From Alphaproteobacteria bacterium (lineage in GTDB: Bacteria > Pseudomonadota > Alphaproteobacteria > Rickettsiales > UBA8987), in assembly GCA_031426355.1 (NCBI GenBank), contig JANPLD010000068.1, positions 71,477 to 135,476 on the forward strand: 64,000 bases of DNA, in the 5' to 3' direction. Position 1 is the first letter of the stretch; each line of letters starts with the position of its first letter. The notes under the pieces were generated by a model. The model saw only the letters and a list, made by a program, of their open reading frames with translations, was not told the origin of the DNA and did no database searches. This document shows, piece after piece, positions 5,838 to 7,499 of the stretch. Position numbers and translations under genes: made by a program.

Positions 5838-6737
5838 ATGAGCACTGAAAATTCTAAAGAAAGGTTTTCCCAAATAATAAAGGATTATAAAATATTTGCT
5901 AAGGATCCTACCGATCCTGATTGGATGAGATATGCTTATGCATGGAAAACTTTTGTTGATGAAACAGAGAAAAAATACGGAGATAAGGGCTTAGGTGAAA
6001 CGGGTGCAGTTCTGCTTGTAATTAGAGATAATGAAAGTGATGAACTTTGGAATATAAAAATGAAGGCTTTATCTGTTTCTGTAAGCGGACAATATATGCC
6101 AGCAGAAATTGAGATAAATGATGCGGAATCAAAAAGAGAAAATTACGATATATTAAAACAACTGCAAAGATCAAAATCAGTAATAGGATCTGGGCCAAGC
6201 ATCATATATATAAGTAAAGATGACTATCAAGATAACAAAAATTTATTTTCAGAAGAAAGTTTAAAATCATTTGGCGCAACAAAAGTCCAAATAGGATTAG
6301 ATGAAGGTACGCAAAGTCTTTCTTTTAATACAAATATAATGAATGCTACAAACAGAAGAGGAAGGGAAATTGATTCTTATTATAATTCTGCTGAAACTCC
6401 AGAGCAAGCATTACAAAATATTATAAATTTAGTAGACGCCTCTAAAGAAACCAGTCCATATAGAGAAATACACAATATTCTAGATAACGATGTTTGTACC
6501 TGCAATGAAATAGCAAGAAAGAAAATAGTAGATCCTGATGCAGGAATAATTGCTGCTTCACCTGTGGTTCATTCAGGCGGGAGTGTTGGCACAACACCAA
6601 AAGGGCTTGAGAAACCGGATATAATAATACCTAATCTTTCATCTATCCTTAAGCAGCCAATAGAAGTATCATTCTTTAACCCATCAATATCCCCTTTAGG
6701 GAAAGTAGGGAAAAACGGATCTGTTATTAAAATTTAA
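5838..6737 (+). CDS. Hypothetical protein, tandem paralog 1 (no recognisable family)
   Basis: 299-aa ORF. It shares DW..YA.AW..VD, LLVIRDNESDELWNIK, GP.I.YI.K.D and VC.C motifs with the next ORF. AT-rich, no signal peptide. Confidence 0.6.
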   Translation: MSTENSKERFSQIIKDYKIFAKDPTDPDWMRYAYAWKTFVDETEKKYGDKGLGETGAVLLVIRDNESDELWNIKMKALSVSVSGQYMPAEIEINDAESKRENYDILKQLQRSKSVIGSGPSIIYISKDDYQDNKNLFSEESLKSFGATKVQIGLDEGTQSLSFNTNIMNATNRRGREIDSYYNSAETPEQALQNIINLVDASKETSPYREIHNILDNDVCTCNEIARKKIVDPDAGIIAASPVVHSGGSVGTTPKGLEKPDIIIPNLSSILKQPIEVSFFNPSISPLGKVGKNGSVIKI

Positions 6738-6749
6738 AAAGTAATAATT

Positions 6750-7499
6750 ATGACCAATGAAATCTTAGATAGTATACTTCCAAAAGAAGATTTGAAAAAT
6801 CTGGGTAGTAATTTGAATTTTGCCCTTAGGCCTTTGGTTGAAGCTTATGATAAAAGCGATTGGGTGAATCATGCAAAAGCATGGAGAAATACTGTTGATC
6901 AGTTGAGAATGCGGTATGAGGAGCATTTTGATACTCCTAATTTATCAGGAAGCCAAAAAGGCAGTGCAAAAAACCTTCTTATAGTTCAGAGAAATAATGA
7001 ATCTGATGAAGTATGGAGAATAAAACAGGAACTTATCAAATCTGCCTTAAGCCTAGACTATAATCCATATGAATATAGCAAAGAACCAAATGAGGGCGCA
7101 AAAGATTTTGCAGATAGAGTATATAATGAGTTTGCCGGGCCTGCTATTGTCTGGATTGATAAAAAAGACTCAAATATTGCAGGAGCCTTTTTAAATAAAT
7201 TTAGTAAAAAAACAATAATGGCAGGATTTGATAATTTAGGAGGATTATCAATTGATAATCATTTAGCAGGAGCTGTTTTTGTATCTGGAATTAAAAAAGA
7301 TGATCCTGAAAATCATAAATTTCCTCAAGCTTTTCATGGGAATGAAAAAGTTCTTCAAGAATATTTAAGCATATATGGCAATTCAGAAATATTAGGGATA
7401 TTATCAAAAGTATGCTCTTGCGAACCTAACAGGGAAAATTTAGTTCCCCCTAAAGATTTAGAAAACCCTAGTCAAAAATCCCAGGCAAAAGGTAGATAA
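6750..7499 (+). CDS. Hypothetical protein, tandem paralog 2
   Basis: 249-aa ORF 12 nt downstream of paralog 1. Collinear similarity (SDWVNHAKAWRNTVD; LLIVQRNNESDEVWRIK; GPAIVWIDKKD; VCSCEPN). Confidence 0.6.
   Translation: MTNEILDSILPKEDLKNLGSNLNFALRPLVEAYDKSDWVNHAKAWRNTVDQLRMRYEEHFDTPNLSGSQKGSAKNLLIVQRNNESDEVWRIKQELIKSALSLDYNPYEYSKEPNEGAKDFADRVYNEFAGPAIVWIDKKDSNIAGAFLNKFSKKTIMAGFDNLGGLSIDNHLAGAVFVSGIKKDDPENHKFPQAFHGNEKVLQEYLSIYGNSEILGILSKVCSCEPNRENLVPPKDLENPSQKSQAKGR

Follow-up and report, generated by a model that had tools for sequence, protein, structure and literature searches.

The analysis concerns two adjacent open reading frames (ORFs), ORF1 and ORF2, located in a 64-kb window (64,000 nucleotides) of contig JANPLD010000068.1, from an alphaproteobacterium of the order Rickettsiales. 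ORF1 (5838-6737, + strand) encodes 299 amino acids (aa) and ORF2 (6750-7499, + strand) 249 aa; the spacer between the stop codon of the former and the ATG of the latter (6738-6749, + strand) is 12 nucleotides (nt) long. Both flanking genes lie on the opposite strand: nuoG (3496-5580), divergent from ORF1, heads a separate nuoGHIJ unit, while gyrB (7526-10006) is convergent with ORF2, at a distance of 26 nt. A perfect palindrome, resembling a binding site for the Fur regulator, is present between nuoG and ORF1. Coordinates, shared strand and gap are exactly those given by a first-pass annotation of the window, which had described the two ORFs as divergent paralogues of no recognised family. Since no terminator-like site is found in the 12-nt spacer, ORF1 and ORF2 are probably co-transcribed.

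The two proteins are collinear paralogues: BLASTP aligns them over 221 residues, with 25% identity (E=2e-13), as expected from the earlier description. The four sequence blocks listed there as shared are all present: the first reads DWMRYAYAWKTFVD in ORF1 and DWVNHAKAWRNTVD in ORF2; the second, whose register had been placed one residue off, an immaterial shift, reads VLLVIRDNESDELWNIK and LLIVQRNNESDEVWRIK; the third GPSIIYISKDD and GPAIVWIDKKD; the fourth VCTC and VCSC. Two related proteins, P0003 and P0005, were found in other genomes by the searches reported below; P0005 carries the family signature blocks ILIIVRSDNQSDAEWEV, NPYEV, PVIMYL..DEY and KVCMCEPGREKI. Across these four sequences, only about 27% identical, 22 alignment columns are invariant, and ORF1 retains all of them. 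The invariant polar residues are, in ORF2 numbering, D50, Y56, R81, N83, D86, W89, S101, E108, C222, C224 and R228. An invariant R-x-N-x-x-D-x-x-W loop is encoded by codons R63-W71 of ORF1 (6024-6050, + strand) and R81-W89 of ORF2 (6990-7016, + strand). A CxC pair is formed by C220 and C222 in ORF1 (6495-6503, + strand) and by C222 and C224 in ORF2 (7413-7421, + strand), these being the only two cysteines of either protein; exactly two cysteines, arranged as a CxC pair, are featured by 4/4 family members.

Both ORFs are AT-rich relative to their neighbours, in agreement with the first-pass annotation: GC content is 33.2% in ORF1 and ORF2, 42.2% in nuoG and 41.7% in gyrB, and GC at third codon positions (GC3) is 0.20 in the pair versus 0.33-0.36 in the two flanking genes. 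The frame of ORF1 is intact despite this composition: at 33% GC about 7.5% of random codons are stops, and simple arithmetic gives p ~1e-10 for a 299-codon frame remaining open by chance. GC content decreases in the order GC1 > GC2 > GC3, the usual coding signature, and no competing long ORF is found on the strand opposite to either gene. When ORF2 is compared to its orthologue P0003, the proportion of non-synonymous differences (pN, 0.32) is lower than that of synonymous ones (pS, 0.65). Because of GC periodicity, pN < pS, the 22 invariant columns and the improbable length of the open frames, ORF1 and ORF2 are held to be genuine genes, well beyond a chance origin.

Relatives, genomic location and evolutionary rate

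Sequence searches return very few relatives. ORF1 and ORF2 match nothing in Pfam, NCBIfam or PADLOC up to E = 10, and only noise is found in PHROGs (E >= 0.065); a sequence-profile search of the PDB gave nothing better than E >= 0.37. For P0003 and P0005, no Pfam match is found at E <= 0.01. A word-indexed search of 5.8 billion proteins retrieved ORF1 and ORF2 themselves and P0003 only, a protein of 271 aa, 52-53% identical to ORF2. A profile search with HMMER, run exhaustively over 1.84 billion cluster representatives, brought in just two further sequences, P0005 (253 aa, E=7.6e-8, aligned over its full length) and P0004 (2931 aa, E=3.9e-8). P0004 contains low-complexity tandem repeats, and only positions 89-125 of the query are matched, eight times: it was discarded as noise, because its score is inflated by the repeats. 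Repeating the search with the four-member alignment yielded no additional member; none was found in scans of GTDB species representative genomes and JGI metagenomes. No homologue was detected when the family profile was run on the 8,474 ORFs of 82 loci, which include 80 gyrB loci of other alphaproteobacteria, and tblastn of the window, P0003 and P0005 loci revealed neither extra copies nor pseudogene remnants.

The known family consists of four members, in three genomes, all located at the 3' end of gyrB and all within a single clade of alphaproteobacteria that is poorly sampled. The orphan status claimed earlier is borne out by every search made; sparse sampling contributes much to it. The gyrB and nuoG genes of the window organism are singletons at 90% clustering; the nearest gyrB, among the matches listed from the scan of GTDB representatives, has at least 64% identity; no relative of the lineage-specific gyrB segment is found in JGI metagenomes. 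The lineage is thus barely sampled, which accounts for much of the orphan status.

P0003 is encoded on a 6-kb Logan contig (L001), where it occurs as a single gene in the same nuoG-gyrB slot occupied by the window pair. P0005 is encoded on a 9.7-kb Logan contig (L082), convergent with a gyrB 83% identical to that of the window; here the family gene is found downstream of phoU and of a 110-aa orphan, not of nuoG. The latter orphan (L082 6160-6492), directly upstream of the family member, features a signal-peptide-like N-terminus; the same contig also carries (2907-5450) a CcrM-like N6 methyltransferase with a RAMA domain, adjoining a HinfI-like restriction enzyme gene. In 3/3 loci the family gene and gyrB converge at their 3' ends: the family occupies a fixed chromosomal slot. 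The gaps between the two genes (7500-7525 in the window, 5089-5103 in L001, 7443-7463 in L082) range from 15 to 26 nt, and no terminator-like hairpin is found in that of the window, the only one scanned. With such short convergent gaps, and no hairpin in the window, antisense read-through is possible, and the transcripts of the family gene and of gyrB may run into each other. On the other side of gyrB, between gyrB and recF, an ORF of 152 aa (10179-10637, + strand), with 26% GC and hydrophobic segments, matches neither Pfam nor NCBIfam.

The relationships among the three genomes were derived from a shared 282-column C-terminal segment of gyrB. Window and L001 are 85.5% identical over this segment and L082 is 72-73% identical to each, while other alphaproteobacteria range from 41 to 49%: the three genomes belong together in a clade, and L082 is the outgroup to the other two. 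In a quartet analysis of the family proteins, the arrangement pairing ORF2 with P0003 and ORF1 with P0005 is supported by 12 informative sites, versus 3 and 1 for the alternatives; three indel states are common to ORF1 and P0005, against ORF2 and P0003; and P0005 is closer to ORF1 (E 1.5e-10) than to ORF2 (E 2.5e-5). ORF1 may be described as an "A-type" member, ORF2 as a "B-type" one, orthologous to P0003. Quartet, indels and the outgroup position of L082 together show that the tandem duplication took place before the window organism and L001 diverged. The 248-nt intergenic region of L001 aligns with the window region 5' of ORF1, leaving neither space nor trace for an A-type copy, so that L001 has lost it cleanly, after the duplication. 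P0003 does not behave as a chimera of the two types: its N-terminus shows B-type indels and blocks.

The family evolves faster than its neighbours. Amino-acid identity between window and L001 is 83% for nuoG, 88% for nuoH and 86% for gyrB; it is 53% for the orphan (ORF2 versus P0003). The ratio of non-synonymous to synonymous rates (omega, calculated according to Nei-Gojobori) is 0.08, 0.06 and 0.05 for the three neighbours, respectively, and 0.28 for the orphan, where dN is 0.42 and dS, at 1.5, is near saturation; comparisons involving ORF1, all saturated, give values from 0.3 to 0.66. The family is under purifying but relaxed selection, with non-synonymous change proceeding at 4-5 times the rate of its neighbours. 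A recent horizontal-transfer island was considered and rejected: the same slot is filled in three genomes, and the copies of the relatives are GC-poor as well, their flanking genes exceeding them by 4-6 GC points. Low GC in all of these copies is consistent with weak constraint combined with AT-biased mutation rather than with recent transfer; low GC3 and fast divergence are what may be expected of an accessory gene under weak constraint, in a genome biased toward AT.

Protein properties and predicted fold

The four family proteins are hydrophilic and acidic, with a grand average of hydropathicity (GRAVY) of -0.5 to -0.66 and an isoelectric point (pI) of 4.9-5.8. No 19-residue segment reaches transmembrane grade, the maximum Kyte-Doolittle value being 1.15 in ORF1 and ORF2 and 1.51 in the whole family; neither a hydrophobic N-terminus nor a signal peptide is found in any of the four. 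The proteins are soluble, without an export signal, and the absence of signal peptides and transmembrane segments, already reported for the pair, extends to its relatives. ORF1, alone in the family, ends in a disordered extension of about 65 aa.

Structures were predicted by AlphaFold2 for ORF2, from a 3-sequence alignment (pLDDT 47, pTM 0.49), and for ORF1, from a 4-sequence alignment (pLDDT 50, pTM 0.50); the predictions are independent only in part, both proteins being present in both input alignments. In both models, N-terminal helices are followed by 4-5 alternating beta-alpha units, where pLDDT rises to 61-84, and by a disordered tail. When the models were compared to the PDB by Foldseek, the best match had E = 0.01, with TM-score values of 0.30 or less and a root mean square deviation of 9-15 A, corresponding to a generic alpha/beta/alpha arrangement only: the structural comparison which had been proposed for the pair gives no significant match, and leaves its orphan status unchanged.

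Several known folds and motifs were examined and set aside. A Toprim domain features a conserved Glu after strand 1 and a DxD after strand 3: in the family, the invariant residue after strand 1 is an Arg, comparison to the Toprim region of GyrB by hhalign gives 0.1% probability, and no Pfam Toprim match is found. A CheY-like receiver, defined by a (beta-alpha)5 fold, an acidic pocket and a conserved Lys, fares no better: hhalign against E. coli CheY gives 0.1%, and there is no Response_reg match. P-loop NTPases, a weak lead from Foldseek, are not supported by a conserved Walker A motif (GxxxxGK[ST], expected after strand 1), and the Foldseek E values are 0.01 or above. For the Cys-based phosphatases (PTP, LMW-PTP, ArsC), whose signature is a CX5R(S/T) P-loop joining a beta-strand to a helix, the VCxCxxxR segment of ORF2, P0003 and P0005 does correspond to CX5R, but in ORF1 the spacing is CX6R; the residue following R is E, D or K, never S or T; P0005 ends 11 residues past CxC, too short for a helix; and no phosphatase match is found in Pfam, at E <= 10 for ORF1 and ORF2 and at E <= 0.01 for P0003 and P0005.

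The conservation of many polar residues, in proteins about 27% identical, suggests a defined binding or catalytic site. Low-confidence models and conservation pattern, taken together, lead to a proposal in which ORF1 and ORF2 would each consist of an intracellular domain, made of N-terminal helices and an alternating beta/alpha sandwich. The R-x-N-x-x-D-x-x-W loop, which in the ORF1 model follows the first core beta-strand, a conserved Glu of strand 2, and the CxC...R segment near the end of the fold would contribute to a single ligand- or metal-binding site. With two cysteines per chain, the site might be completed across a homodimer or an ORF1-ORF2 heterodimer. Generic three-layer alpha/beta/alpha domains, Rossmann- or flavodoxin-like, likewise show beta-alpha alternation and, according to the models, polar residues at the C-terminal ends of the strands; the family differs from them in having low-confidence models, no significant match by Foldseek or by sequence, and no Walker A, Toprim or receiver signature.

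The palindrome upstream of nuoG and other features of the window

The palindrome, TTGATAAT-T-ATTATCAA (5684-5700), is composed of two 8-nt arms, 100% complementary and 1 nt apart, and lies 104 nt from the ATG of nuoG and 138 nt from that of ORF1. Positions 5685-5699 match exactly the 7-1-7 Fur-box consensus TGATAATnATTATCA, and are the sole site with two mismatches or fewer in the 64-kb window; an exact match to TGATAATNATTATCA was obtained in 0/100 dinucleotide-preserving shuffles. In L001, the 15-nt core TGATAGTTATTATCA matches at 14/15 positions and the 17-nt palindrome at 14/17. In L082, no Fur-box match with fewer than 3 mismatches is present, and none is found upstream of the family homologue: the Fur box accompanies the family gene in L001, not in L082. 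The earlier report of a Fur-box-like palindrome next to the pair holds, as far as the site itself is concerned, since this is real, non-random and perfect in its arms; the site is not, however, a property of the family, as it belongs to a conserved block on the nuoG side and is missing in L082.

Conservation of the intergenic region is uneven. Identity between window and L001 is 80% over the nuoG half (5581-5703) and 47% over the ORF1 half (5704-5837). The palindrome is one of two conservation peaks in the nuoG half (90% over 5680-5699); the other is a second conserved non-coding block, of 40 nt, located upstream of nuoG (5612-5651, 90-95% identical to L001), which probably serves nuoGHIJ as a promoter or operator element. 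For the genes flanking the intergenic region, dS between window and L001 is about 1.4: their synonymous sites being saturated, the nuoG-proximal block must be regarded as constrained. A riboswitch, or other structured RNA, was rejected as its content: folding z-scores are flat (+0.45 and +0.33), and Rfam gives nothing at E <= 1. With no RNA signal, the conserved blocks are probably DNA-level sites. Promoter-like -35 hexamers overlap the palindrome on both strands; promoter-like matches are at chance level (13 found, 10.0 +/- 3.1 expected).

Because conservation is contiguous with nuoG, and the site is missing at the L082 copy, which lies away from nuoG, the palindrome is most likely a putative operator, mainly of the divergent nuoGHIJ unit, and not intrinsic to the family; in the window genome and in L001 it may also influence the ORF1-ORF2 promoter. 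Accordingly to this proposal, nuoGHIJ, which encodes Fe-S subunits of complex I, would be controlled through the Fur-box-like palindrome. The nuo genes of this genome are split (1147-5580, - strand): nuoG, nuoH, nuoI and nuoJ form a unit of their own, and nuoF is replaced by the 257-nt intergenic region and the divergent neighbour.

The nuo operon of Caulobacter crescentus is directly activated by Fur, which binds at a site 87 nt upstream of nuoA (PMC2724300). The two cases are alike in featuring a palindromic site about 90-100 nt before the first gene of a complex I unit, and here the palindrome is conserved between sister genomes, window and L001. They differ in that the Caulobacter site is of the TGCGA type and precedes nuoA, while the putative one described here is of the classical E. 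coli / B. subtilis 7-1-7 type TGATAATnATTATCA, and precedes nuoG of a split nuo operon.

Other features of the window are reported here for completeness. A VirD4/TraG-like ORF of 443 aa (13166-14497, - strand) lies in a stretch of 23-27% GC: its score is 235 bits (cutoff 728), the match extends over positions 141-478 of the 657 of the profile, the membrane part at the N-terminus is missing, and the Walker A motif is degenerate (GPIGTNKT). In sequence it looks like the decaying remnant of a coupling protein of a type IV secretion system (T4SS); no further secretion genes were seen in the 64-kb window. FlgB/FlgC-like flagellar basal-body rod genes are found at 35904-36763 (+ strand), from which it may be argued that the organism is, or was formerly, probably flagellated. 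An RcGTA-like, phage-derived gene set extends from about 38440 to 52258, interrupted by recA (46622-47641) and by one further gene; it comprises the "megatron" baseplate gene of gene transfer agents (38440-40821), NlpC/P60, DUF2460, a head-tail connector, a prohead protease S78 (45913-46422) and an HK97-type portal (51056-52258).

Competing explanations and significance

The reading which best accounts for the observations, with a probability of roughly 0.55, is that ORF1 and ORF2 are a functional, clade-restricted gene pair in the gyrB slot, each encoding an intracellular alpha/beta domain, and that the palindrome is primarily an operator of nuoG. A number of points weigh against it. The fold is taken from two models of low confidence (pLDDT 47 and 50), also in the CxC region; no metal-binding or enzyme family is matched, and two cysteines by themselves are no proof of metal binding. 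Values of omega are only approximate, dS being near saturation. The shared gene order of three fairly close genomes may be simply inherited, and is of little value as a clue to function. As to the palindrome, divergent genes can share a regulatory site located between them; its attribution depends on one informative contrast, that with L082; and the Pfam scan, applied to 30 of the window ORFs, gives no Fur-family match.

Alternatively, ORF1 and ORF2 might be effectors, exported by a T4SS or by a type I secretion system (T1SS), and evolving fast through contact with targets in a putative host. Such proteins, as the Bep effectors of Bartonella or those of Anaplasma and Ehrlichia, are generally lineage-specific, duplicated and fast-evolving, lack a Sec signal and carry a basic tail. 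The family resembles them in its restriction to one lineage, in its duplication, in a non-synonymous rate 4-5 times that of its neighbours and in the absence of a Sec signal, as expected for T4SS and T1SS substrates. The acidic body of the proteins is followed, after the CxC, by a non-conserved, net-basic tail (+1 to +3; +2/+3 in the last 20 residues), compatible with a translocation signal, though not specific for it, and the VirD4-like ORF lies 6 kb away. This ORF is, however, a degenerate fragment, there are no virB genes, nor any intact T4SS, in the window, and neither BID, FIC or ankyrin nor other effector or eukaryote-like domains are found by Pfam. The slot is a stable one, on the core chromosome and not in an island; an omega of 0.28 indicates purifying, not diversifying, selection; the many invariant polar residues suit a catalytic or binding site better than a variable interaction surface. 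Genes for the flagellar rod and a cluster of RcGTA type are also present in the window. The traits in favour of export are generic, and export of the two proteins as effectors is considered unlikely.

To a similar extent, it is doubtful that the pair encodes iron-responsive factors of a Fur regulon, with the CxC as a ligand of iron or of an Fe-S cluster. The exact 7-1-7 Fur box, 138 nt upstream of ORF1 and conserved in L001, the overlap of the palindrome with -35-like hexamers on both strands, the invariant Cys pair and the Fe-S protein encoded by the divergent neighbour nuoG would all fit. The homologue of L082, however, has no comparable site, intergenic conservation is contiguous with nuoG and collapses toward ORF1, and promoter-like matches do not exceed chance. 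Many alphaproteobacteria, moreover, control iron via Irr or RirA rather than Fur, and the Pfam scan of 30 window ORFs detected no Fur-family protein.

A more ambitious interpretation, in which the family would represent an unseen fold or enzyme class built around a CxC site and confined to this clade, acting as a gyrase modulator or as a new type of effector, draws on synteny and on generic sequence traits, and is judged improbable. Less credit still is given to the more specific suggestion that the family modulates or protects gyrase, as an acidic inhibitor or a chaperone, or that it controls gyrB by antisense transcription. The adjacency to gyrB, convergent and with short gaps in 3/3 genomes (terminator-free in the window), persists despite the change of the upstream neighbour, nuoG in two genomes and phoU in L082, and the proteins are acidic; yet the three genomes are close kin (72-86% over the C-terminal gyrB segment), for which inherited gene order suffices, no similarity to the GyrB Toprim (hhalign 0.1%) or to known gyrase modulator families of Pfam is found, and no homologue lies by gyrB in 80 other alphaproteobacteria. 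That the two ORFs are decaying or spurious frames of an AT-rich nuoG-gyrB spacer, as low GC3 (0.20), the lack of a known family or of an obvious Shine-Dalgarno sequence before ORF2, and the high, though saturated, omega values with ORF1 might hint, is hardly credible in view of the long open frames, very improbable at 33% GC, of coding-type periodicity, of pN < pS, of 22 columns conserved collinearly in three genomes and of the absence of a rival long ORF on the opposite strand.

The functional, clade-restricted pair remains the preferred reading, and in most respects the case is not an exceptional one: the orphan family is genuine, though of a fairly ordinary kind, and its lineage is under-sampled. 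Like other ORFan families with tandem duplication, it is confined to a narrow clade, evolves fast, is low in GC, and has paralogues that were differentially lost; unlike them, it occupies a stable core-genome slot by gyrB, rather than an island or a prophage, and retains many invariant polar residues.

Should a defined biochemical role be true, for instance a metal or ligand site composed of the invariant Arg/Asn/Asp/Trp loop and the Cys pair, ORF1, ORF2 and their relatives would constitute a new, unannotated protein family, and a marker of their undersampled clade. Of more immediate use is the new attribution of the palindrome: a conserved Fur-type site of the classical kind, before a nuoGHIJ unit split from the other nuo genes, suggests that iron directly controls the Fe-S subunits of complex I in this lineage, as in Caulobacter. 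The case also shows how sparse sampling creates "orphans", and how flanking regulatory sites may come to be credited to the wrong gene.

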